Shown here in pieces: positions 5,890-61,714 of a stretch of 64,000 nucleotides of DNA. The stretch's first letter is position 1, and each line of letters starts with the position of its first letter. Both the position numbers and the translations under genes were made by a program. This DNA is from Candidatus Saccharimonadales bacterium (GTDB lineage: Bacteria > Patescibacteriota > Saccharimonadia > Saccharimonadales > UBA10212): contig JBBDZU010000007.1 in NCBI GenBank assembly GCA_040900055.1, positions 104,435 through 168,434 on the forward strand. The letters are read 5' to 3'. The notes under the pieces were generated by a model. That model had not been told where the DNA came from, searched no databases, and was given only the letters and a program-made list of their open reading frames with translations.

Positions 5890-6543
5890 ATGTACGCCTT
5901 AGCGCTATTAGTATTGTTAGCATATTTTGTTTATAGGCACGCTCGTCCTTCTGAGCACGAGATGATCGTTATCCCCCGGCGGCTTGGTGCAAGGCTAACT
6001 AAACTTTGGGAAATCGCACACTACGGCATGCGCGAAAATAGGCTACTTAGAGCCGAGAAAGCCTTACTGACTATCTTAAAGATTGACGAGAAAAACGCCG
6101 CTGCCTATAACCGTCTGGGCATCTTGTACGCTAAACAACGCGAATATAAGGATGCTATCGATTGTTTTGAAATCGCCAGCAGTATCGAGCCTACGGCTTC
6201 GTCTTTGCATAACCTCGGGCTTATTTATTACGAAACAGAAAACTACGAAAAATCAGCCGCAGCTTTCGAACAGGCTCTCAAGCTAGAAGACACTCTAGCC
6301 GCCCGGCATATTGCCTACGCTAAAGTCCAAGAGAAGTTAGGCAACGAAAAGCTAGCCTTAGCGCAGCTACAAAAGGCCGTCGGGCTAGAGCCTAATCCGG
6401 AATCCTATAATTTGCTAATAAAAGCCTACGAGGTCAACGGTATGGTTGAAGAGGCAAGGGAAGCTCAAAGAAAAGCCGGTAAACTAGCCTTGCCCGCAGG
6501 ACGCCTAAAGCGAGTGCTTCGGCCCCGACGTGTAGTTATCTAA
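5890..6543 (+). CDS. TPR-repeat protein with N-terminal TM helix
   Basis: N-terminal hydrophobic segment followed by repeated AxxYxxLGxxY-type TPR units. Confidence 0.65.
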   Translation: MYALALLVLLAYFVYRHARPSEHEMIVIPRRLGARLTKLWEIAHYGMRENRLLRAEKALLTILKIDEKNAAAYNRLGILYAKQREYKDAIDCFEIASSIEPTASSLHNLGLIYYETENYEKSAAAFEQALKLEDTLAARHIAYAKVQEKLGNEKLALAQLQKAVGLEPNPESYNLLIKAYEVNGMVEEAREAQRKAGKLALPAGRLKRVLRPRRVVI

Positions 6544-6559
6544 GAGCTAGTCGAATTCA

Positions 6560-6645
6560 TGGTGCAGGGAGAGGGATTCGAACCCCCGTAGGCGAATGCC
6601 AGCTGATTTACAGTCAGCCCTCGTTGGCCGCTTGAGTATCCCTGC
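6560..6645 (-). tRNA. tRNA-Tyr (anticodon GTA), type II with long variable arm, CCA encoded
   Basis: The reverse complement gives GCAGGGA...GGTTCGAATCC...TCCCTGCACCA. The anticodon loop is CTGTAAA. Confidence 0.85.
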
Positions 6646-6689
6646 GCAAAGTAAATTGTAACACCGCTCAAAACTCCAACATCTTGACG

Positions 6690-6765
6690 TGGAGCCGGCA
6701 GAGGGATTCGAACCCACGACCCGCTGTTTACAAAACAGCCGCTCTGGCCACTGAGCTATGCCGGC
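6690..6765 (-). tRNA. tRNA-Thr (anticodon TGT), CCA encoded
   Basis: The reverse complement is GCCGGCATAGCTCAGTGG...TTTGTAA loop...GGTTCGAATCC...GCCGGCTCCA. Confidence 0.85.
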
Positions 6766-7107
6766 AATCGTCCTCAAGCTTAGCAAAATAACAGATAAGA
6801 TTCAATTTCAAGCGTGCTATAGTAGGTTCATGAGTCATGGGCCAGAGATAGCAAGAGAAGCTGAACCCATGCCAAATCCTTTGCTCGTCATGATTAGCGA
6901 CGGCCTTAGACGGATCTTCAGTGACAGAATAGGCGGCTATGGCCCTCCATGGCCTCCACCCGGGCCAGTCAATTATAAAACACCAGAAAACGACCCCGAC
7001 ACAGCGGAGCTGCAGCGAAGACTCAGAACTAGAAGGGGGATGTACAATGCATATGGCTTCCGTATTCATAGAAAATAGCATCTACGTTTATCACGCTTCC
7101 TAAACCT

Positions 7108-7389
7108 ATGAAATATTCCAATAACGACTTATGGAGCGTAAGGCAGATTGAGTTTTTAGATGACGCCCTCAAGGGGCATCGGCATAAGTCCGCTATTTAC
7201 TACCCTGAAAGAAAGATACAGTTAAGCATCCCGGATATCGCTGAATATAAGTACCTCGGTGTTTTACATTTTCCAGAGCATGATAGAACTATTATTTTTG
7301 AACAGGGCAAGAATTACGGACTTAAAAAGACTGAGATTCTGAAATTTCTTCGGGACAAGAATATTAAGGTTGAGGTTCGTGATGACTGA
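7108..7389 (+). CDS. Hypothetical 93-aa protein, translationally coupled (ATGA) to downstream nrnA-like gene
   Basis: Clean ORF with protein-like composition. Its stop overlaps the ATG at 7382. There is no SD and no recognisable family. Confidence 0.45.
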   Translation: MKYSNNDLWSVRQIEFLDDALKGHRHKSAIYYPERKIQLSIPDIAEYKYLGVLHFPEHDRTIIFEQGKNYGLKKTEILKFLRDKNIKVEVRDD

Positions 7390-8413
7390 ACCAACTAAGT
7401 TCGAGGCGTTAATCGAGCAATCTGAGCGGATTTTGGCCACTTCACATATTTCGCCAGATCCTGACGCAGTCTGCTCGGTATTACTACTCGGCACAACCCT
7501 GAAAGTCAATTTCCCGGGAAAAAAAGTCCATATGGTTTTGGAAGAAAACCCGTCAAAAGACCTCGCTTTTCTGACTGGATATGATGATGTTCAATTTGGG
7601 CCTATCACCGATGAATTAAAGAAGTTCAGCCCCAATCTAGTGATCATTGTTGATGCTATGAACTTTGAACGTATCTCCCGGCTAGATAGTACAGCCATTA
7701 GAGATTATATAGAAACAAAAGACGTTAAGCTGGCCATCATCGACCACCACCAACAGATTGACATCGAGCCAGCTGCCGATGCCTACATTAATAAAACGAA
7801 CCCCGCCACTGCCCAGGAACTTTACGAGTTACTGTTTGAGGAACTAGGGTTGAAAAAACCTAATGGGTACGCCGAAACTACTCTGCTGGGCATTATCTCT
7901 GATACAGCCCGTCATAAGTATGACAATCCTAAGCACCGGCAGACATTTAAGATTGTCAGCGACCTGATTGATGCGGGGGCGAGCATTGAGAAACTGGAGA
8001 ATAGAATTGATAATCTAACGCATGGCCAGCTGGAAGTGTTAGATAGCTTAATCAAGAACATCAGTAGCGATGCAAGAGGTTTTACCTATAGTTATGTTGA
8101 CGATACTTTTACAGATGCCTGGCTGTCGGCTGGTCGACCAATTAATGAATTTAAGTCTGGCTTTGAAGAATTCACGAACCGCTATCTGAAAAATTTTGAG
8201 GGTAATAAATGGGGCTTTGCAGTTTATCGCGATATTTCTTCGGGTGAACCAAAGACGCATGGAGCGTCCTTTAGATCGGTTAGCAACGCCAAGGATGTAT
8301 CGAAAATTGCCAATCAGCTTGGTGGTGGCGGACATAAAGCCGCGGCTGGCGCAAGAATTACCGCAGACAACATCGAAGCAGCGCTCAAAACAGTCCTATC
8401 TTTGCTAAAATAA
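7382..8413 (+). CDS. nrnA: DHH/DHHA1 phosphoesterase (NrnA-like oligoribonuclease / pAp phosphatase)
   Basis: DHH motif (AIIDHHQ) and DHHA1 motif (GGGGHKAAAGA). Confidence 0.8.
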   Translation: MTEPTKFEALIEQSERILATSHISPDPDAVCSVLLLGTTLKVNFPGKKVHMVLEENPSKDLAFLTGYDDVQFGPITDELKKFSPNLVIIVDAMNFERISRLDSTAIRDYIETKDVKLAIIDHHQQIDIEPAADAYINKTNPATAQELYELLFEELGLKKPNGYAETTLLGIISDTARHKYDNPKHRQTFKIVSDLIDAGASIEKLENRIDNLTHGQLEVLDSLIKNISSDARGFTYSYVDDTFTDAWLSAGRPINEFKSGFEEFTNRYLKNFEGNKWGFAVYRDISSGEPKTHGASFRSVSNAKDVSKIANQLGGGGHKAAAGARITADNIEAALKTVLSLLK

Positions 8414-8426
8414 CAACTTGAAGATT

Positions 8427-8502
8427 GCCGCGATAGCTCAGCTGGTAGAGCGCATCCATGGTAAGGATGAGGTCACGGGTTCGAATCCCGTTCGCGGCTC
8501 CA
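8427..8502 (+). tRNA. tRNA-Thr (anticodon GGT), CCA encoded
   Basis: GCCGCGATAGCTCAGCTGGTAGAGCGCATCC-ATGGTAA-GGATG...GGTTCGAATCC...GCGGCTCCA. Confidence 0.85.
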
Positions 8503-8561
8503 ATCTGTTGAATAAGTTATAGCAATCTGTTAAAGTTGAAAGCTGCTCATAATTATTAACT

Positions 8562-8765
8562 ATGGCCAAGAAAAGCGACAAACGAAAAATCATCGGTCTA
8601 AGCTGCGAGGCTTGCGGCCAGCGCCACTATTACAGCACTAAAAATACTATGAACACCCCTGACAGAGTGGAACTAAAGAAGTACTGCCCTGTTAAGCGCA
8701 TAATGGCTAAACAAGTCGAAACTAAGAAAAATCTTGGTAAAAACGTCGTAAAGCCGCGCCGCTAG
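8562..8765 (+). CDS. rpmG: 50S ribosomal protein L33 with C-terminal basic extension
   Basis: MAKKSDKRKIIGLSCEACGQRHYYSTKN...KKYCPVKR is L33-like. Sits in the classical position between tRNAs before secE. Confidence 0.8.
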   Translation: MAKKSDKRKIIGLSCEACGQRHYYSTKNTMNTPDRVELKKYCPVKRIMAKQVETKKNLGKNVVKPRR

Positions 8766-8923
8766 CTTAAGGTATAATTGCTCTTGTAGCTTACAATTTT
8801 GTAATAACACGCACTAAAGCAGGTTTTCGCAAAATTGAGAGGAGGAGACGACTTAAGGCTGGAAGTAGTTGGTTAATTAAGTATCAAACCTACTTACGGA
8901 AGCCGGCACGTCGACTCCGACGT

Positions 8924-9000
8924 AGGAGTGTAGCTCAGCTGGCTAGAGCGTCGGTCTCCAAAACCGAAGGTCGTGGGTTCGAGTCCCTCCACTCCTGCCA
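8924..9000 (+). tRNA. tRNA-Trp (anticodon CCA), CCA encoded
   Basis: AGGAGTGTAGCTCAGCTGG...TCGGT-CTCCAAA-ACCGA...GGTTCGAGTCC...CACTCCTGCCA. Confidence 0.85.
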
Positions 9001-9023
9001 GACCTTTATGAACTGAACTTCCG

Positions 9024-9704
9024 GTGGTAGTATCAATTGTAATGACCACCAAAATTGCCCTAGCTAAACCAATTTTACTCTGTCTTTATGGTTTTCCTGG
9101 TTCGGGCAAGAGTTTTGTAGCTAGAAACCTAGCTTCAACCTTAGAAATAGCGCTCGTTAGTGCCGACAGGGTAAGAAGCGAGTTATTTAGGCAACCTCGC
9201 TACGACGATCAAGAAAACGCCATTGTTACTCACCTAATGAACTATATGACTGAGGAATTTTTAAATGCTGGTGTCGGCGTAGTTTATGACGCTAATGCAG
9301 TAAGAGTAGCCCAAAGGCACAGGTTGAGGGAACTGGCCAAGAATCACCGTGCAGACTACCTGCTAGTTTGGCTGCAAATCGACGTTGAGAGCGCCTTTAC
9401 TCGTACTCAAAAACGTGACAGACGTACCGCCGACGATAAACATGCCGAGCCTCAAACCCGCCTAACCTTTGATAAACAGCTTAGTTTAATGCAAAATCCT
9501 AAAGACGAAGATTATCTGGTCATCAGCGGTAAGCATGCCTTCGTAACTCAAAAAAATGCGATCATCGACAGACTTTATAAGATGGGCTTTATCCCTAGCG
9601 AGACCGTACAGCATAATGTCGCAAAACCTGGACTGGTTAACCTTATACCTAACCCGCAACTTGACCAAGTGGACCTAAGCCGCCGTAGCATCTCAGTCGA
9701 ATAG
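9024..9704 (+). CDS. P-loop NTPase, AAA_33 / zeta-toxin-like predicted kinase (GTG 9024 or ATG 9042 start)
   Basis: Walker A motif LYGFPGSGKSF and Walker B-like VGVVYDAN. Size of about 220 aa. Confidence 0.65.
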   Translation: MVVSIVMTTKIALAKPILLCLYGFPGSGKSFVARNLASTLEIALVSADRVRSELFRQPRYDDQENAIVTHLMNYMTEEFLNAGVGVVYDANAVRVAQRHRLRELAKNHRADYLLVWLQIDVESAFTRTQKRDRRTADDKHAEPQTRLTFDKQLSLMQNPKDEDYLVISGKHAFVTQKNAIIDRLYKMGFIPSETVQHNVAKPGLVNLIPNPQLDQVDLSRRSISVE

Positions 9705-9705
9705 T

Positions 9706-10416
9706 ATGTCAACTAGAGCGGTCTATGTGGACGGAGTTGGGGATATATTACTTACCAAACGCAAAGGTTCCAAAAATGCCCGATTAAGTATCAGGGCCGA
9801 CGGCCGCGTGCGAGTGAACTTGCCCGCCTGGTCGTCATATGCTGCTGGCTTAGCCTTTGCCAAAGCTCATAAGCGCTGGATAATAAGCCATCGCCCTTAC
9901 TTTCAAAGGCCCGTCCTAAAAAACGGTGACCAATTTTATGGTAAGTACCATCTAAAATTTAACTACACCCTAGGGGCTCAAAGAATCACCGCCACGTTAG
10001 GCCCTAGAAGTATTGTTATATCAAGCAGCCTAGCGTATGACCACCCTAGTGTTCAAAATAAAGCTTATCAAAGCTGCGAAAAAGCCCTTAGGGCCGAAGC
10101 CAAAGTTATATTGCCTAAACGCCTAGAACAATTATCTAGGCAGTATGGCTTTAAGTGCCAAGATGTTAAAATCCGCAAACTGACAGCTAGATGGGGAAGC
10201 TGTTCAAAAGATAAAAAAATTACCTTAAGCTATTACTTATTGCAGTTATCTCCCGATCTTCGTGATTACGTTATCTTGCATGAGTTAGTACACACCAAGC
10301 ACTTAAACCATGGTCCGGACTTTTGGCAGCTTTTCCAAAGCATCTATCCCCAAGCAAACCAAAGTAGAAAGCACATCCGGAATTTTAGGCCGCGACTAGC
10401 GCCGCTAACTACTTAA
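9706..10416 (+). CDS. DUF45 / YgjP-like zinc metallohydrolase (HExxH)
   Basis: YVILHELVHTKHLNHGPDFW is the HExxH plus H..FW signature of the YgjP/DUF45 family. Start is 2 nt after the upstream stop. Confidence 0.7.
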   Translation: MSTRAVYVDGVGDILLTKRKGSKNARLSIRADGRVRVNLPAWSSYAAGLAFAKAHKRWIISHRPYFQRPVLKNGDQFYGKYHLKFNYTLGAQRITATLGPRSIVISSSLAYDHPSVQNKAYQSCEKALRAEAKVILPKRLEQLSRQYGFKCQDVKIRKLTARWGSCSKDKKITLSYYLLQLSPDLRDYVILHELVHTKHLNHGPDFWQLFQSIYPQANQSRKHIRNFRPRLAPLTT

Positions 10417-10500
10417 AAACCGTTGCAAAAACCGAATTCGTACGCTACTATTGACATGTCGAAGCCTACTTTAACAAGTAGGTTTTTTAAGTGAGGAATA

Positions 10501-10839
10501 ATGGCGACTAATTCGTCGAGTGCTAAAAAACGCATTCGAAAAACCGCACCTTCACCAGATGAGGGTAAATCTAAACACGAAAGGCAAGCAAACAGCCGTT
10601 TGCAGGGGGTTTTACCTCAAGTTATGCTGCCTGTAAGCGTTAAGCGAGTCCTAAATAAGCTAATTCCCAGCTATTTTATTAGGTCTTGGCGTGAAGTCAG
10701 AAAAGTTAGTTGGCCAAATCGTAAAGAAACCTGGCGGCTAACACTGGCGGTATTCATCTTTGCTGTAATCTTTGGGGCTTTAGCCTTCGGCGTCGATAAG
10801 GGCTTAGACATACTTTTTAGAGACCTAGTATTAGAATAA
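10501..10839 (+). CDS. secE: Preprotein translocase SecE (long basic N-terminal region)
   Basis: C-terminal EVRKVSWPNRKETWRLTLAVFIFAVIFGALAFGVD is the SecE signature. Directly upstream of nusG. Confidence 0.8.
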   Translation: MATNSSSAKKRIRKTAPSPDEGKSKHERQANSRLQGVLPQVMLPVSVKRVLNKLIPSYFIRSWREVRKVSWPNRKETWRLTLAVFIFAVIFGALAFGVDKGLDILFRDLVLE

Positions 10840-10848
10840 GGAACTTTT

Positions 10849-11391
10849 ATGAACAAACGCTATGACTCCTCTAAACAATGGTATGCCATCCATACTTATA
10901 GCGGCTACGAAGAAAAAGTAGCGGAATCTATTCGCCAGAGGGCCGAATCGTTAGATATGGGCGATAAGATTTTTCAGGTCTTGGTTCCTAAAGAAAAAAT
11001 GATTGAGATTAAAAACGGTAAGCGTCGCGTAGTCGAAAAACGCATCTTTCAAGGTTATGTGTTGGTAGAAATGAAATTATCTGAAGATGCTTGGTACATC
11101 GTGCGAAACACCCCCAATGTAACTGGCTTTGTAGGCACCGGCACTGACCCCACGCCGGTTGAACCCGATGAAATTGCTAAAATTATGAAGCGAATGGGCC
11201 GCGACGAGCCTAAGCACAAGTTCGATTATCGGGTTGGTGAGGTCGTTAATATAATTGATGGACCGTTTAAAGGTTTTGATGGAGCCATTAACGAGATAGA
11301 CGCCCAGAAAGGAAAGCTTAAAGTGCTGGTTAATATGTTTGGCCGCGAAACGCCGGTTGAGCTTGATGGCCTACAGGTAAAGAGGGTTTAA
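10849..11391 (+). CDS. nusG: Transcription termination/antitermination factor NusG
   Basis: NGN domain (WYAIHTYSGYEEKV) and KOW domain (GEVVNIIDGPFKGFDGAINEID). Confidence 0.9.
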   Translation: MNKRYDSSKQWYAIHTYSGYEEKVAESIRQRAESLDMGDKIFQVLVPKEKMIEIKNGKRRVVEKRIFQGYVLVEMKLSEDAWYIVRNTPNVTGFVGTGTDPTPVEPDEIAKIMKRMGRDEPKHKFDYRVGEVVNIIDGPFKGFDGAINEIDAQKGKLKVLVNMFGRETPVELDGLQVKRV

Positions 11392-11392
11392 C

Positions 11393-11848
11393 ATGGCCAA
11401 GGAAGTTAAAGCCAATATCAAGATGAAAATCCGGGCTGGGCAGGCCAGTCCAGCGCCGCCAGTGGGCTCCATACTCGGCCAATACGGTGTCAATATGATG
11501 GACTTTATTAATCCCTTTAACGAACAGACCAAAGACCGCATGGGACAGATGGTTACTGTCCATGTAACCATATACGATGACAGGACCATGGTCTGGCGGG
11601 TAGTCGGCACCCCTACTGACGAACTGATTTTATCCGCTCTTAAAGTAGAGAAAGGGTCAGCAGAACCAAACAAGACAAAGCTAGATGAGAAGTTGTCTAG
11701 TTCCCAGCTGAGCGAAATCGCGGAAAGTAAGGCCAGCGATATGAACACAACGGATATCGAATCTGTGAAAAAAATGGTAGCCGGTACAGCCCGCAGCATG
11801 GGTGTAGAAATAGATAAGACGGGAGAAAGTGATAATGCCCACACCTAA
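11393..11848 (+). CDS. rplK: 50S ribosomal protein L11
   Basis: IKMKIRAGQASPAPPVGSILGQYGVNMMDF is the L11 signature. Confidence 0.9.
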   Translation: MAKEVKANIKMKIRAGQASPAPPVGSILGQYGVNMMDFINPFNEQTKDRMGQMVTVHVTIYDDRTMVWRVVGTPTDELILSALKVEKGSAEPNKTKLDEKLSSSQLSEIAESKASDMNTTDIESVKKMVAGTARSMGVEIDKTGESDNAHT

Positions 11849-12740
11849 AAAAGCTGAAGACCAGGCGCTTAAGCAGGCTGAGATTACCGACAAAGTTGCG
11901 CCGGCTGCAAAGAAAGTTGACTCCGCCGCTAAAGCCGGCAAAAGAAGCCCTAAGGCCGTGAGGGAGACTTCGGAAAAATTGGCTAAAAATGCTAAAAAAG
12001 CTCACGCCGGCGAGTCAGATGCTAAAGCAAAAACCGCACACAAACCTCCCCGTAGCCGGCAAGAACGGACCGGTAAAAAATATCGCGAGGTGGCTAAGCA
12101 AGTTGATAAAACTAAAGTCTACAGCCTGGCGGAAGCCGTGGATTTGGCTACTAAAACGAATCCTGTCAAGTTTGACGCTTCAGTAGAAATACATATCAAC
12201 TTAAACGTCGATCCCACGCAAGCCGACCACAATATCCGTGGCAGCCTGAACCTCCCGGCTGGCAGCGGTAAAAAAGTGGTTGTGGCTGTTTTTGTTAACG
12301 ACGAAGACGCTGCCGAGCTTAAAAAGGCCGGCGCTGATTTAGCTGGTGTATCCGAGATCTTGGCCAAGCTAGATAATAAGGAGCTTAGTTTCGATATTTT
12401 GATATCTACCCCCGAACTTATGAGCGTACTTTCCAAATATGCCAGGTTACTGGGCCCAAAAGGACTCATGCCCAATCCCAAAAGCGGAACCGTAACTTCG
12501 GATGTCAAAAAGGCTGTTTCAGAAGCTAAAGCTGGAAGAATAGAATACCGTATTGACCCAAGCGGCATAATCCATATGGCGGTCGGTAAGGTAAGTTTTG
12601 GCCAAGACAAACTGCTTAGCAACGTCGAGGTTGCTATCTCTGCGATTCGTACGTCCAAGCCGGCTAGTCTTAAAGGCCCATACGTCAAATCGGCCTATAT
12701 TAGCACCTCGATGGGACCATCAATCAAAATTACGGTCTAG
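11835..12740 (+). CDS. rplA: 50S ribosomal protein L1 with N-terminal Lys/Ala-rich extension of about 75 aa
   Basis: Core L1 begins at GKKYREVAKQVDKTKVYSLAEAVDL and ends at GPSIKI. SD GGGAG at 11821-11825 precedes ATG 11835 (GTG 11829 is also in frame). No alternative in-frame ATG lies before the core. Confidence 0.85.
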   Translation: MPTPKKAEDQALKQAEITDKVAPAAKKVDSAAKAGKRSPKAVRETSEKLAKNAKKAHAGESDAKAKTAHKPPRSRQERTGKKYREVAKQVDKTKVYSLAEAVDLATKTNPVKFDASVEIHINLNVDPTQADHNIRGSLNLPAGSGKKVVVAVFVNDEDAAELKKAGADLAGVSEILAKLDNKELSFDILISTPELMSVLSKYARLLGPKGLMPNPKSGTVTSDVKKAVSEAKAGRIEYRIDPSGIIHMAVGKVSFGQDKLLSNVEVAISAIRTSKPASLKGPYVKSAYISTSMGPSIKITV

Positions 12741-12758
12741 GTGTAAACTAAAGTACAT

Positions 12759-13463
12759 ATGGGAGTTTATAGCAACAAGCAAATCAGAGAGGCGATTAGC
12801 GCAGGTCATATTATTTGCCATCCTTTTAATCCTGCTAACGTGGCCGGTAGTAGTCTTGACGTTACCCTAGGAGAGTGGTTCTACCGCACTGAGCGCACGG
12901 GGCTAAGTGGTTTTTATAATCCTTTTGATAAGCAAGACGTTAATCGTTACTTCGCGGGGCCATATAAAGCAGAAACTCATAGGGTATGGTCCAAAGCTAA
13001 TGGCCGAACCCTTTTTGAAGGTATCCCAGCTAACCAGCCGATAATTGTGGTTAGGCCGGGAGAGAGGTTACTCGGTCATACTCATGAATTTATAGGGATT
13101 AAGGCTCCCGGCACCAGTACTCTGCAGGCTCGAAGTACGTGGGGGCGAAATGGCGTAGCGGTTTGTATAGACGCCGGCTGGGGCGACCCTGGCTACATCA
13201 ACCGCTGGACACTAGAAATCTACAATATGAATCAACACGAAAGTGTGGTCCTTCCCGTTGGCGAACGCATTGCCCAAATGGTTTTTTACGAAACCGGACC
13301 AGTCGACGGTGAATATGTAGGGCTTAGTGGCAAATACCAGCAAGCGACTAGCGCTGATCTAAAGTCCCTCGTCAAAAAGTGGGAACCGGTCCAAATGCTG
13401 CCAAAAGCTTATAAAGACGCTAGAACTAAACCCATAAAAATTGATGGTTTGGGTGGCTCATGA
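12759..13463 (+). CDS. dcd: dCTP deaminase / dUTPase-superfamily protein
   Basis: N-terminal SSLDVTLGEWFY and the central beta-barrel region resemble Dcd. The 234 aa length is somewhat longer than canonical Dcd. Confidence 0.7.
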   Translation: MGVYSNKQIREAISAGHIICHPFNPANVAGSSLDVTLGEWFYRTERTGLSGFYNPFDKQDVNRYFAGPYKAETHRVWSKANGRTLFEGIPANQPIIVVRPGERLLGHTHEFIGIKAPGTSTLQARSTWGRNGVAVCIDAGWGDPGYINRWTLEIYNMNQHESVVLPVGERIAQMVFYETGPVDGEYVGLSGKYQQATSADLKSLVKKWEPVQMLPKAYKDARTKPIKIDGLGGS

Positions 13464-15406
13464 CCGGAACTTTCATAGTCCTAGAGGGCTCTGACGGCTC
13501 AGGCAAGACCACTCAATTTAGGCTGCTCCAAGCGCGGTTAAGGGCCCTGGGGTACGATGTCGAGGTTTTTGATTTTCCCCGTTATGACCAAGATTCCAGT
13601 CACTTTATCCGCAAATACTTAAATGGTGATTACGGACGGCCTGCCGATGTTAGCCCTTATAGTGCCTCACTTTTTTATGCGCTTGACAGATTCGAGGCTG
13701 CAGCTGATATCAGAAAAACTCTGTCTGCCGGAAAAATTGTCTTATCGGATCGCTATGTTGGATCGAATATGGCCCATCAAGGTTCAAAAATCGACGCCGC
13801 AGCCCAACTTAGAGGCTATTTTGTCTGGAACGACAATTTGGAGTACAGATTACTGGGCATACCACGTCCAACTATTAGTATTTACCTGAGGGTGCCCGCA
13901 GACATCTCCTATGACTTAATGGCCAAAAGGGCCGTTCGGAGCTACACCGATAAAGTTCGTGATGGCCACGAAGCTGACTTAAACCATCTACAAAAAACCG
14001 TAAAAACTTATGATCTACTTTGTCAGCTATTCCCTAAAGACTATATTGCTATCGACTGTACAGATAATCAAAAAATACTTGGCATAGCCGAGATTAATGA
14101 CCGGATTTGGGAAGTTGTTAAGCCGTTGCTCCCAGCCAGCCGCCCCCATCGACCAAAAAGCCTAACAGTTAATATTAATGAGCCGGTAATGCCAGCGATT
14201 CATGCCAAGAAAACTGCAAAACGTGACGGGCTAACAACAAAGGGCGACAAGGTTCTAATTTTTGAGTCAAGAAATGTCAGTCTGCTGGCTTTAGCTTCCG
14301 TCATTGCTAACCCCGTTAAGCTTGAAATGACGCCATCAAAGGATTACTTTACACCCAGCTCACTACCTGCAAATCTCCAAAAATTCTACAAAGAGAGTCT
14401 GGAGCATCTTTCCAAGCTCCAAAATCAGCTAAGGGCTGGCCTGCACAAACATGACAATACTCCAAACGAACAAATACTAGCCGCAGTTGCTTCTATTAGG
14501 CCCTTGGCGTCACTTTATAACATCCGTATTTTAGCGACCCATCAAGCGGCCGGGGACTTAATTGACGAATTAGCACTAAGCAGCCTTAAAGAGGCTAGAT
14601 GGCTAGGTGATCAACTGGCAGCGGCAGCTAAAAATATGTGGCCAGCCACTCAGGCACTACGAGGCCATACTCCGCCAGAGGCTGTCCGCAAGATTATTGC
14701 CGAAATTTCTAAAAATCACTTACCGCAAAAAATCGACGGCGCTTCAGAGCCAGTCAGACTGCTTCAGGCTTTACCTCGTAATGAATTTGAGATTTTAGCC
14801 GACGGCATCTACCCATTTAGTAATCTATCTAAGAGCGATATCGAAAATGAGCTCGATAGCTGGAGCTACGAACAAAAATCGCAAGCCCTATCGGCGATAG
14901 TAGCCAAACCGACGCTGTCACGAGAGATTTGCTATAGACTCGACGCTATTTGTGACTTTTTGTCATTTCAAACTATGCGCTCAAGCAGTATCGGTTATGA
15001 TTTTAGCCTTCAGCCGCCTACACCGCGGTACGGTTACGATATGCCTAAAATTATTGAAGACGCCGGACTAGAAGATACCTTTATGGAGTGTTTTGATGAG
15101 AGTCTAAAGCTATATAGCACGCTTCAATCCAAAAGCTCCCAAGAAAACGCCAGCTACGCAACGCTTACCGGCCATAAAATTAGGATGCAGTTTAATCTTA
15201 AAGCAGCCGACTTAAGTCAAGCACTGCACAGTGGTAGCCCTAAACCAGACACTTACCTTAAGCTGCTTGAAGAAATTCAGGAAAAAGTCTCTTCTGCCCA
15301 CCCAATAATTTGGGCAAGCTTATCTAAAGGCAAGGAGAACGCCCCCATTTTAGATAAACCTAAGACACGCCGCACTCGCAGCAAAAAAAGGGTTCGACCA
15401 TCTTAA
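13460..15406 (+). CDS. tmk: Thymidylate kinase fused to a C-terminal domain of about 430 aa of unknown function, with an Arg/Lys-rich tail
   Basis: N-terminal IVLEGSDGSGKTTQ P-loop and dTMP-kinase-like first ~215 aa. The remainder has no family I can assign. The ATGA overlap with dcd indicates coupling. Confidence 0.7.
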   Translation: MTGTFIVLEGSDGSGKTTQFRLLQARLRALGYDVEVFDFPRYDQDSSHFIRKYLNGDYGRPADVSPYSASLFYALDRFEAAADIRKTLSAGKIVLSDRYVGSNMAHQGSKIDAAAQLRGYFVWNDNLEYRLLGIPRPTISIYLRVPADISYDLMAKRAVRSYTDKVRDGHEADLNHLQKTVKTYDLLCQLFPKDYIAIDCTDNQKILGIAEINDRIWEVVKPLLPASRPHRPKSLTVNINEPVMPAIHAKKTAKRDGLTTKGDKVLIFESRNVSLLALASVIANPVKLEMTPSKDYFTPSSLPANLQKFYKESLEHLSKLQNQLRAGLHKHDNTPNEQILAAVASIRPLASLYNIRILATHQAAGDLIDELALSSLKEARWLGDQLAAAAKNMWPATQALRGHTPPEAVRKIIAEISKNHLPQKIDGASEPVRLLQALPRNEFEILADGIYPFSNLSKSDIENELDSWSYEQKSQALSAIVAKPTLSREICYRLDAICDFLSFQTMRSSSIGYDFSLQPPTPRYGYDMPKIIEDAGLEDTFMECFDESLKLYSTLQSKSSQENASYATLTGHKIRMQFNLKAADLSQALHSGSPKPDTYLKLLEEIQEKVSSAHPIIWASLSKGKENAPILDKPKTRRTRSKKRVRPS

Positions 15407-60508: not shown

Positions 60509-61714
60509 GTGTGGTTAAGAAAGAAGAGTAAAGCAGCTGAAGCGAAGTCAGATGGTCGCCTGACCTCCGATTTTATTTTAGAAGCCATCGAAGATGGTGT
60601 TGTCGTGGTTGGTAGCAGAGGCGAGATTGAGCTATACAATCGGGCAGCTACTAAGATTTCTGGCTGGCCAGCCGCCGAGGCCATCGGTTTAGACTACCGA
60701 AGCGTTTTACCCATGTTAGACGAGAAAGGCCAGCCAAAGCCTGCCGGTAACCACCCGTTTGCACAAGTATTTGCACAAGGCAAAGTCGTACGTGACCCTA
60801 ACGGGCTACTCTCAACACGCTCTTCAAAACAATTGCCCATATCCATGATTGCTTCGCCGTTAGCCGGTAGTGGTGGGCAAGGGGTCGCCAAGGTGATCGG
60901 GGTTTTTCGAGATGTTTCGAAAGAAAAAGCCGATGAGGCCAGACGCTCCGAATTTATTAGCACTGCCTCACACGAAATGCGCACCCCGTTAGCCGCCATC
61001 GAGGGGTACCTATCCCTAGCTCTAAACGAAAAAATTGCTAAGGTAGACTCTAACGCCCGAAAATATGTCGAGAAGGCCTCGGCTGCCACTAAGCACTTAG
61101 GGATATTGTTTGCCGACTTATTGACTAGTTCGCGGGCCGAGGATGGCCGCTTAGTCAGCTATCCGACCGTTATAGAAATTGGTGAAACCATTGCCCAAGT
61201 AGTGGAAGCCGAACGCTTTAGAGCCAAAGAGCGGGGGCTGGAACTTAACTACCTGGTCAGCAGCGATAAAGACGTAGCTGGCGGCTTGGTAGTCCGGCCG
61301 ACTTATTATGTTTTTGCCGACCCGCACCGTATAGCCGAAGTCCTACAAAATCTTATCGATAATGCCATTAAATACACCAGTACCGGAGCCATAAGCGTGC
61401 GGCTAACTGGGAATAGTTCGGTCGCCCAGATTCAAGTCAGCGATACCGGCGCTGGCATCCCGGCCGAAGATATTCCCCATTTGTTCCAAAAGTTTTACCG
61501 AGTCGATAACACTGCTACCAGGACAGTGGGCGGAACCGGCCTGGGGCTGTTTATTTGCCGCAAGATTATAGAACTTTATAACGGTAAAATTTGGGTAGAA
61601 AGCCAGCTAGGCAAAGGCAGCACGTTCTTCATTAACCTACCGAGGCTAACCTCCGAGCAGGCCTTGAATATGCAAAGAAAAAAAGCTTCCATCATTAGTC
61701 CAATGGAGCCTTAA
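60509..61714 (+). CDS. Cytoplasmic PAS-domain sensor histidine kinase
   Basis: PAS-like N-terminus, HisKA FISTASHEMRTPLAAIEGY, and HATPase motifs DNAIKYT and DTGAGIP..GTGLGL. No TM segment. Confidence 0.8.
   Translation: MWLRKKSKAAEAKSDGRLTSDFILEAIEDGVVVVGSRGEIELYNRAATKISGWPAAEAIGLDYRSVLPMLDEKGQPKPAGNHPFAQVFAQGKVVRDPNGLLSTRSSKQLPISMIASPLAGSGGQGVAKVIGVFRDVSKEKADEARRSEFISTASHEMRTPLAAIEGYLSLALNEKIAKVDSNARKYVEKASAATKHLGILFADLLTSSRAEDGRLVSYPTVIEIGETIAQVVEAERFRAKERGLELNYLVSSDKDVAGGLVVRPTYYVFADPHRIAEVLQNLIDNAIKYTSTGAISVRLTGNSSVAQIQVSDTGAGIPAEDIPHLFQKFYRVDNTATRTVGGTGLGLFICRKIIELYNGKIWVESQLGKGSTFFINLPRLTSEQALNMQRKKASIISPMEP

Follow-up and report, generated by a model that had tools for sequence, protein, structure and literature searches.

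A close counterpart of the genes considered here is found in the cultured species Southlakia epibionticum, strain ML1 (Wang et al. 2023), where a tRNA-Trp gene (SEML1_0428) is followed by the gene of an AAA family ATPase (SEML1_0426, PF13671), that of a YgjP-like M48 family metallopeptidase (SEML1_0425, PF01863) and three further genes before those for SecE (SEML1_0421), NusG (SEML1_0420) and ribosomal protein L11 (SEML1_0419) are reached (PMC10633639). The same Pfam domains, in the same order and at the same locus, are found in a 64,000-nt stretch of DNA from a Candidatus Saccharimonadales bacterium (contig JBBDZU010000007.1 of assembly GCA_040900055.1, positions 104,435 to 168,434; this whole stretch is called the window below, and all its features given by coordinates lie on its forward strand). 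There, a P-loop kinase of the AAA_33 clade (9042-9704, 220 aa) and a YgjP-like/DUF45 zinc hydrolase (9706-10416, 236 aa) are encoded between a tRNA-Trp gene and secE-nusG. The DUF45 gene is 711 nt long in both genomes. The two loci differ in that the S. epibionticum kinase is annotated with 186 aa, possibly without a C-terminal motif found in the window kinase, in the spacer between the two genes (36 nt, against 1 nt in the window), and in the presence, between DUF45 and secE, of genes for phosphoribosyltransferase (PRTase)-like, SLOG and PAS-histidine kinase proteins. Both genes carry generic annotation in public genomes. In the window, tRNA-Trp, kinase, DUF45, secE and nusG follow one another at the coordinates of a first-pass annotation, whose gene order was confirmed by open reading frames (ORFs), ARAGORN and Pfam, as was the tight coupling it had proposed for the pair, the kinase stop (TAG, 9702-9704) being separated from the DUF45 ATG (9706) by a single nucleotide.

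Related loci were collected with NusG as the anchor, and were therefore retrieved with or without the pair. A total of 484 relatives were confirmed, of which the best 80 (87-96% NusG identity; loci L001-L080) represent 80 species-level genomes, mostly labelled Candidatus Saccharibacteria or Saccharimonadales. The kinase gene followed by the DUF45 gene was detected by tblastn upstream of secE-nusG in 71 of these 80 loci, the remaining nine being uninformative because their contigs end less than 2.7 kb upstream of nusG, and the complete pair is present in every species with enough upstream sequence (70/70). The same order, continued through rplK and rplA, is kept in a deep lineage showing 26% kinase and 61% NusG identity to the window (694-kb contig), in a second one at 37% and 71%, respectively (687-kb contig), and also in a genome with 37% DUF45 identity. 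The first-pass annotation had taken the pair for an acquired, tRNA-adjacent module, and had named beforehand the sharing of both genes at this position by all related genomes as the observation that would speak against an insertion. This is what was found, in the 70 informative species, in the deep lineages and in S. epibionticum; as all informative relatives share the pair, an insertion is refuted for this genome and for the sampled Saccharibacterial lineages. The pair is almost certainly ancestral and vertically inherited in Saccharibacteria. Its place between tRNA-Trp and secE predates the divergence of the sampled lineages; seen against other phyla, the pair is still an ancient addition to this junction that is specific to the lineage.

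Both proteins diverge far more rapidly than NusG: mean pairwise identity is 0.55 for the kinase and 0.41 for DUF45, the catalytic residues being kept in both. Distances among kinases and among DUF45 proteins are correlated with those of L11+L1 (Mantel r = 0.59 and 0.58, respectively, p = 0.001), the two ribosomal proteins themselves reaching only r = 0.50 with one another. The flanks have been rearranged around the kept pair, by genes located between DUF45 and secE, by flipping of tRNA-Trp and by replacement of upstream genes, and it is the DUF45-secE interval, not the pair, that forms the variable part of the locus.

A horizontally acquired module, in which a zeta-toxin-like kinase would be matched with a metallohydrolase acting as immunity protein or antitoxin, or which would belong to some other defence system, could account for the vicinity of a tRNA gene and for the tight coupling of the two genes. 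The kinase belongs to the same Pfam clan as the kinases of zeta/epsilon and PezAT systems, the Zeta_toxin model weakly matches 27 of 32 members of the kinase family (best E-value 7e-14), some viral "Zeta toxin domain" proteins are among its fold matches, and weak PADLOC matches to VakA and IetA are obtained at 1e-4. The window kinase itself falls under the Zeta_toxin cut-off (PF06414, 18.8 bits against 22.3), AAA_33 always being the best match, and no zeta toxin is found in the top 60 of a profile search against the PDB or among the top structural matches. PADLOC gives no match for DUF45, and for the kinase only P-loop-level ones (E = 8e-5 or weaker). Unlike zeta/epsilon and PezAT, the pair has a fixed chromosomal position and is vertically inherited, and its partner gene is dispensable and is not an epsilon- or PezA-like antitoxin. 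There is no compositional shift either: the GC content is 0.452 for the kinase gene and 0.444 for the DUF45 gene against 0.458 for the window, GC at third codon positions matches that of the neighbours, and the profile is flat. Att-like direct repeats of the tRNA-Trp 3' end are absent on either side of the pair, and no mobility gene or integrase is present at 8.4-10.9 kb.

Transposon insertion sequencing (Tn-seq) of S. epibionticum bears on this question as well. Both genes were scored as non-essential at all three time points (NE/NE/NE), the DUF45 gene with 41-48 insertion sites and normalised reads of 2340, 2593 and 2211, the kinase gene with 39-42 sites and reads of 2155, 1813 and 641 (PMC10633639). 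The DUF45 gene thus takes its insertions at unchanged read counts with the kinase intact, and a zeta/epsilon-type system is incompatible with these data because the downstream "antitoxin" is freely disrupted while the upstream "toxin" remains intact. The toxin-immunity-like function that had been proposed at first therefore finds no support in the Zeta_toxin score, the gene content or the Tn-seq data. We consider it very probable that the pair belongs to none of the toxin-antitoxin, defence and mobile modules, and an acquired toxin-immunity module is very unlikely and the last of the alternatives considered here.

What the ancestral pair does has to be approached through its two proteins. For the kinase, the end of the gene at 9704 stands as first annotated and the start had to be moved from a GTG at 9024 (226-aa ORF, 9024-9704) to an ATG at 9042. 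The latter is almost certainly correct, because homologous N-termini align to MTTKIALAKP, an identical database protein (P0001) is 220 aa long, and positions 9025-9033 form a conserved element resembling an extended -10 promoter box, TGGTAGTAT, which lies 8 nt 5' of the ATG and matches both the consensus and the conservation among relatives; the same observations exclude the GTG. Of 65 loci, 26 have a strict TGnTAnnnT no more than 30 nt from the kinase ATG (background 2.7%) and 23 others a TAnnnT; the gap between the end of the -10 and the ATG is most often 7 nt, and Shine-Dalgarno (SD)-like motifs precede the kinase in only 5 of the 65. An extended -10-type promoter 7-8 nt 5' of the ATG would give rise to a leaderless or near-leaderless mRNA, as this conservation suggests. 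DUF45 starts lack SD-like motifs altogether (0/17) while secE starts carry one (GAGG, GGAG), and translation of DUF45, which begins 1 nt past the stop codon of the kinase, thus most likely depends on coupling by termination and reinitiation.

The kinase is best matched by Pfam AAA_33 (PF13671; E = 4e-20, 73 bits against a cut-off of 27), its residues 18-144 covering positions 1-131 of the 143 in the profile, and all 32 members of its subfamily are matched by this model, which bears out the family assignment made at first. The P-loop (G17xPGxGK23), D42xxR45, D83 and the lid (R121xxxR125-D-x-R128) are all intact. Among 71 sequences, G17, P19, G20, G22, K23, R45, D83, R121, R125, D126 and R128 are conserved in at least 95%, and D42 in at least 80%. 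The subfamily is a small one, with 40 clusters at E <= 1e-30 and 279 at E <= 1e-10 in an exhaustive search of 1.84 billion representatives; no protein among the matches is long enough to be a kinase-DUF45 fusion. At its C-terminus (residues ~190-220, 9615-9701), the window kinase carries a tail reading KPGLVNLIPNP...VDLSRRSISVE, the family form of which, KPGLVNL(I/V)P...(R)VD-SRRNISI, is kept down to the deep lineages, is also present in L083, L088 and L089, and is missing from a distant kinase homolog found unpaired (L090). These ~30 residues are predicted to be disordered (AlphaFold2 (AF2) local confidence, pLDDT, below 50; 80.5 for the whole model), and the tail looks like a short linear docking motif.

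By sequence-profile placement, the kinase is closest to nucleic-acid kinases, namely polynucleotide kinases (PNKs) and PSTK. Its best PHROG match is a polynucleotide kinase (2.5e-16). A profile of 32 family members run against the PDB ranks PSTK first (5.7e-12, the best full-domain match to a solved structure), followed by the C. thermocellum Pnkp kinase (1.7e-11) and Pnkp1 (2.8e-10), with APS kinase (3.9e-9) and adenylate kinase (~1e-7) at lower ranks. In NCBIfam, bacterial Pnkp (3.7e-10) and PSTK (4.5e-10) come out on top, both far under their equivalog cut-offs (TIGR04075, 38.6 bits against 750, residues 10-140 aligning to 2-129 of 851; TIGR03574, 39.4 bits against 290.5), and Pfam KTI12 matches 31 of the 32 family members. 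Fold comparison does not discriminate, since gluconate kinase, Pnkp, mammalian PNKP, PSTK and APS kinase are all recovered by Foldseek at about E = 1e-8; a fold search of a viral library returns many viral PNKs. The first-pass annotation had also mentioned a housekeeping shikimate or gluconate kinase as an identity that would count against an insertion, and the scores are far under the equivalog cut-offs for both (NF010552, 25 bits against 186; TIGR01313, 20.2 bits against 113.75).

With Pnkp (C. thermocellum, Capnocytophaga) and T4 Pnk/PseT, the window kinase shares the P-loop fold with its GxxGxGK(S/T) motif, the Asp-x-x-Arg following strand 2 and the RxxxR lid. Unlike Pnkp, it is a stand-alone protein whose 220 aa include no phosphatase or ligase domain, it has a unique conserved C-terminal motif, and its partner is a zincin-type hydrolase rather than a calcineurin- or HAD-type phosphatase. 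PSTK and KTI12 are tRNA-binding P-loop proteins with C-terminal extensions; unlike PSTK, the window kinase has no C-terminal tRNA-binding domain, and no selenocysteine context is evident.

The second protein was rightly recognised from the start as a DUF45/YgjP HExxH hydrolase, matching PF01863 over nearly its full length (2.8e-41, 142.2 bits against a cut-off of 26; residues 23-225 on positions 1-205 of 207). As in the E. coli YgjP family (COG1451), with which it was compared through the family profile, an RWGSC motif (residues 162-166), the H192ExxH196 motif and a downstream histidine (H202) are present, and eight residues (W163, G164, S165, C166, H192, E193, H196 and H202) do not vary among 38 diverse homologs and reach at least 95% conservation in a set of 71 Saccharimonadales sequences. 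In the AF2 model (pLDDT 95.8), the HExxH-bearing C-terminal half (~93 columns) superposes on proabylysin (E = 6e-5; TM-score normalised to the target 0.72, root-mean-square deviation 1.9 Å), projannalysin and selecase, with SprT, Wss1 and IrrE as weaker matches; phmmer also recovers two minigluzincins. The catalytic half of the modelled protein is thus of the minigluzincin fold, and aligns structurally with SprT, Wss1 and Spartan as well. Unlike minigluzincins, DUF45 possesses an additional N-terminal half of ~140 residues, beta-rich with a long helix, for which no solved structural match was obtained. Neither NCBIfam nor PHROGs gave a match for DUF45. E. coli YgjP is annotated as a UTP pyrophosphatase (PMC12783615, table). 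Apart from this KEGG-style label, the literature contains negative preQ1-transport tests of some YgjP proteins. The pyrophosphatase label reportedly goes back to an in vitro metabolomics screen.

Several observations link the two proteins functionally. They co-occur strictly (70/70), with a spacer between kinase stop and DUF45 start of 4 nt in the median, 169 nt at most and nine cases of a 1-nt overlap; stop/start overlaps are conserved and DUF45 starts are devoid of SD motifs; the distant kinase without the tail is unpaired; and no kinase gene adjoins the DUF45 homologs of Bacteroidales and other non-Saccharibacterial groups, which sets the Saccharibacterial DUF45 genes apart from those of other bacteria. 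We consider it likely that the two proteins work together. Compact-operon packing, as practised by streamlined genomes, could also bring two functionally unrelated genes under a shared promoter at tight spacing. Short spacers and overlaps are common in the window (4 nt for dcd/tmk, 20 nt for rplK/rplA), shared phylogeny alone explains the distance correlations, and the Tn-seq profiles differ slightly, kinase reads falling 3.4-fold by T2 and DUF45 reads staying flat. Packing would hardly have preserved adjacency and orientation in all 70 species and at kinase identities as low as 26%, with the flanks rearranged around the two genes; DUF45 has no SD motif of its own, and the unpaired homologs of either protein belong to different subfamilies. 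That the genes are unrelated in function seems improbable on these grounds, and it ranks below the two other functional alternatives discussed next.

As a whole, the locus is probably best explained as an ancestral two-gene unit acting as a nucleic-acid or nucleotide maintenance module. The kinase would belong to the polynucleotide-kinase/PSTK/KTI12 branch of AAA_33 and, as an ATP-dependent phosphotransferase, would phosphorylate a hydroxyl on a nucleic-acid end (5'-OH of RNA, DNA or tRNA) or on a nucleotide, and the DUF45 zinc hydrolase would perform an accompanying hydrolytic step. This step may be the cleavage of a phosphoanhydride or phosphoester, as suggested by the annotation of E. coli YgjP, or the removal of a peptide adduct, as in the SprT and minigluzincin relatives. 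Such a module would be beneficial in nature and dispensable in laboratory co-culture. The chances that the substrates belong to the class of nucleic acids or nucleotides are about even, and a polynucleotide end as the specific substrate of the kinase is put forward tentatively, being rather doubtful even though the ranking of the profile matches leans slightly towards polynucleotides.

The foremost alternative is salvage and sanitation of free nucleotides, by a nucleoside or nucleoside monophosphate (NMP) kinase and a DUF45 nucleoside triphosphate (UTP) pyrophosphatase that together would balance pools in an organism without de novo nucleotide synthesis. S. epibionticum has no nucleotide biosynthesis genes (PMC10633639), and its DUF45 gene is followed by genes for PRTase-like and SLOG/TIGR00725 proteins. 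The UTP pyrophosphatase annotation of YgjP (PMC12783615) points the same way, as do weak matches of the kinase to (d)CMP, adenylate, thymidylate and deoxynucleoside kinase models and the neighbours in the window, which include a DHH/DHHA1 NrnA-like gene upstream and a dCTP-deaminase-like gene and a Tmk fusion downstream. However, PNK, PSTK and KTI12 consistently outrank NMP kinases in sequence-profile searches, a kinase and a pyrophosphatase acting on one pool would form a futile cycle unless their specificities differ, and the neighbouring nucleotide genes are inconsistently linked, DHH being absent within 6 kb in more distant loci. Free-nucleotide salvage thus appears unlikely, if more probable than the other alternatives.

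A protein-directed pair comes next in probability. DUF45 would then be a true metalloprotease, of the minigluzincin or SprT/Wss1-like kind, clearing DNA-protein crosslinks or cleaving a regulator, and the kinase would heal the resulting 5'-OH DNA end or phosphorylate the substrate of the protease. The nearest solved DUF45 folds are indeed peptidases, first the minigluzincin group with proabylysin at its head and then Spartan SprT (probability 0.87) and Wss1 (0.85-0.92); NCBI names some orthologs "SprT family zinc-dependent metalloprotease", the S. epibionticum ortholog is assigned to Spartan in ECOD (e6mdwA1), and the kinase domain of mammalian PNKP is among the top structural matches of the kinase. 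Against this, DUF45 scores under the thresholds of Pfam SprT-like (PF10263, 20.6 bits against 25.6) and WLM (PF08325, 17.1 against 26), no DNA-binding domain was identified, and we know of no documented protease activity in the YgjP family. Beyond the resemblance of folds, the idea is speculation, and we hold it to be improbable.

Returning to the maintenance module, a number of points weigh against it. It would be unusual for an HExxH zincin to act as a phosphoesterase, and no ligase or Hen1-type repair partner is seen near the pair. The fold of the kinase is a generic one, matched nearly as well by gluconate, APS and adenylate kinases as by PNKs, and Pfam SKI is matched at 25.9 bits, marginally over its cut-off of 22.1 and 47 bits under AAA_33. 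Both genes are dispensable in S. epibionticum co-culture; the orthology of SEML1_0426/0425 to the pair is drawn from synteny, size and Pfam domains, not from sequence alignment. Correlated distances are expected for any vertically inherited neighbours and do not prove a functional link, and the predicted promoters and leaderless start of the kinase mRNA are drawn solely from conservation.

Downstream of the pair, the junction with secE contains a second conserved feature. The first-pass annotation had noticed a hairpin followed by a T-run upstream of secE and had suggested that it may terminate the pair. The hairpin and T-run exist (10464-10488), the hairpin with the sequence GCCTACTT-TAAC-AAGTAGGT, but the element, first attributed to the 3' end of the pair, tracks secE. 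Its 8-bp stem (10464-10471/10476-10483) includes 3 G-C pairs and is followed by six Ts (10483-10488); taken as a single sequence, it has a folding z-score of -0.72 and is not called by a consensus terminator scan. Between the T-run and the secE ATG (10501) lies an SD motif, GAGG (10493-10496). Upstream of the hairpin, starting 6 nt after the DUF45 stop, is a promoter-like element (10423-10456) composed of a -35 box (TTGCAA, 10423-10428), a 17-nt spacer, a -10 box (TACTAT, 10446-10451) and TGACA (10452-10456). The consensus promoter/terminator scan of the window missed both promoter-like elements and the hairpin, because they fall just under its thresholds.

In the relatives, a CCTAC...GTAGG stem with a T-run is present in 15 of 20 loci with a direct DUF45-secE junction (background 6%) and in 16 of all 28 loci tested there. 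Over the whole set, the hairpin lies just 5' of secE in ~60 of the 80 loci, between -405 and -697 nt relative to nusG (mostly between -440 and -520), and is kept whatever the upstream gene, even when this is a divergent membrane gene; the hairpin therefore belongs to secE, as its position follows this gene regardless of what lies upstream. TANNNTTGACW occurs once per locus at this position in ~75 of the 80 loci; in the window it has 6 matches (4.0 expected), only one of them at secE. A TTGnnn is located 16-18 nt upstream of the -10 box in 70 of 76 sequences (17 nt in 57; background 5.4%), TAnnnT is followed by an invariant TGAC(A/T), and the hairpin begins 5-9 nt later. At least four Ts come after the hairpin in 74 of the 76 sequences (background 21%), then an SD motif, the secE start lying 27 nt past the hairpin in the median. 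The complete unit of promoter, hairpin, U-tract and SD spans 10423-10500 in the window and is found in about 75 related loci, for example at L001:5520-5574, L045:5495-5548 and L083:6952-7010.

The stem is supported by covariation. Loci without the exact core keep a hairpin with compensatory changes (GCTTAC/GTAAGC, CCTAT/ATAGG, ACTAC/GTAGT), and in others unrelated stems take the same place (GCATCTATC/GATAGATGT and GCACATAC/GTATGTGT). RNAalifold yields 8 pairs, 6 of them with compensatory changes; 94.5% of the cells are paired against 83.2% after shuffling, 74 cells are doubly changed against 20.4, none of 500 shuffles reaches the observed values, and slid controls are paired to 51% at most. 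A covariance model has a single match in the whole window of 64 kb (50 bits, E = 1e-9). Held-out secE leaders score 24-47 bits with this model, and loci from outside Saccharibacteria give no match. Rfam, searched at E <= 0.1 over 6000-13000, returned tRNAs only and no family for the hairpin or leader. Two other interpretations of this region were rejected. TTGACA (10451-10456) could be the -35 box of a promoter with its -10 box in the loop or T-run, yet no conserved TAnnnT is found 16-18 nt away and the T-run is ~29 nt away; and the inverted repeat is not likely to be a protein operator, as the spacing of its arms varies from 3 to 16 nt and the stems change by compensatory substitution.

The conserved promoter, hairpin and U-tract form a candidate secE-nusG leader element. 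With 6 nt between the DUF45 stop and the secE -35 box, any transcript running on from the pair has to pass through the hairpin and T-run, which may therefore also end it, but this is not the reason why the element is conserved. Candidate roles for the hairpin are those of a leader attenuator, possibly dependent on NusG or NusA, of a 5' stabilising stem-loop, which would include a U-rich ribosome landing site, and of an insulating terminator. A comparable packing is known from Gammaproteobacteria, where the tufB terminator overlaps the secE-nusG promoter (Brandis et al. 2019, PMC6735719), and both cases combine a terminator-type hairpin with the secE-nusG promoter in a short conserved stretch. 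Unlike the tufB case, the Saccharibacterial hairpin and T-run follow the promoter-like element and would be part of the 5' leader, and both persist where the upstream gene is divergent.

Taken to their furthest, the data on pair and leader would describe a Saccharibacteria-specific, split nucleic-acid end-healing or repair system and, separately, a new secE-nusG leader attenuator. A PNK-like 5'-kinase would act with a YgjP-type zincin that stands in for the usual phosphoesterase of HAD or calcineurin type or takes off a peptide adduct, the disordered C-terminal motif of the kinase (KPGLVNL...RRNISI) would serve as a docking peptide, and NusG or NusA levels would feed back on nusG transcription via the promoter-hairpin-U-tract. 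We regard this joint reading as a long shot.

The remainder of the neighbourhood can be described briefly. Upstream of the pair, the window carries tRNA-Thr (GGT; 8427-8502; ARAGORN, Rfam tRNA 70.7 bits), rpmG for ribosomal protein L33 (8562-8765; Pfam Ribosomal_L33 7.3e-14, NCBIfam rpmG_bact 8.9e-14) and tRNA-Trp (CCA; 8924-9000; ARAGORN). In 35 related loci scanned with ARAGORN, tRNA-Trp is mostly ~60-180 nt upstream of the kinase, on either strand; it is flipped in L035, L040, L041, L042, L044, L045, L049, L067, L077, L078 and L079, and tRNA-Thr (GGT) is flipped in L004, L009 and L025-L029. The flipped tRNA genes keep their position by the kinase or rpmG and look like small local inversions of single tRNA genes. 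In many species, the DUF45-secE interval contains a PAS/HisKA/HATPase_c histidine kinase of ~370 aa (e.g. L001:4377-5489, L042:2718-5327), often together with a divergent membrane protein of ~500 aa with multiple transmembrane segments. The S. epibionticum counterpart of this histidine kinase, SEML1_0422, shows a late growth defect (NE/NE/GD; PMC10633639). The window has no such cassette at the junction, and a ~31%-identical homolog lies at about 60520-61660. On an unrelated 813-kb contig (L087:5001-8741), a short DUF45 homolog of 188 aa is followed by a HisKA/HATPase_c kinase and a response regulator, an adjacency that echoes the Saccharibacterial arrangement and may be coincidental.

Downstream, secE (10501-10839; Pfam SecE 1.9e-16; NCBIfam secE_bact 44.3 bits against a cut-off of 27.55) encodes a protein with a long basic N-terminal extension and a single SecE domain at residues 58-109, and is followed by nusG (10849-11391). 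Ribosomal protein L1 (11829-12740), whose gene overlaps rplK by 20 nt, has an apparent Lys/Ala-rich N-terminal extension of ~80 aa and has 303 aa in the window, against 321-333 aa in L083, L088 and L089. A 648-aa ORF (13460-15406), which shares its first 4 nt with the end of the dCTP-deaminase-like gene (12759-13463), has a thymidylate-kinase domain at its N-terminus (1.4e-21) and is extended at its C-terminus by ~440 aa without a Pfam match.

The kinase and DUF45 genes thus belong to the gene order that Saccharibacteria have conserved, and are no mobile or toxin-like insertion: they are members of known enzyme families in a lineage-specific, conserved arrangement. A strictly co-inherited, coupled pair of a kinase and a zinc hydrolase has been kept in a phylum of tiny genomes, in which retained genes are presumed to be useful, and its function is directly testable, because both knockouts are viable in the genetically tractable S. 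epibionticum. The promoter, hairpin and U-tract of secE-nusG, a cis element supported by covariation, may turn out to be a more useful by-product than the pair itself. Together, the putative leaderless mRNA, the predicted SD-less coupling and the leader element provide handles on the poorly known transcription and translation signals of Patescibacteria.

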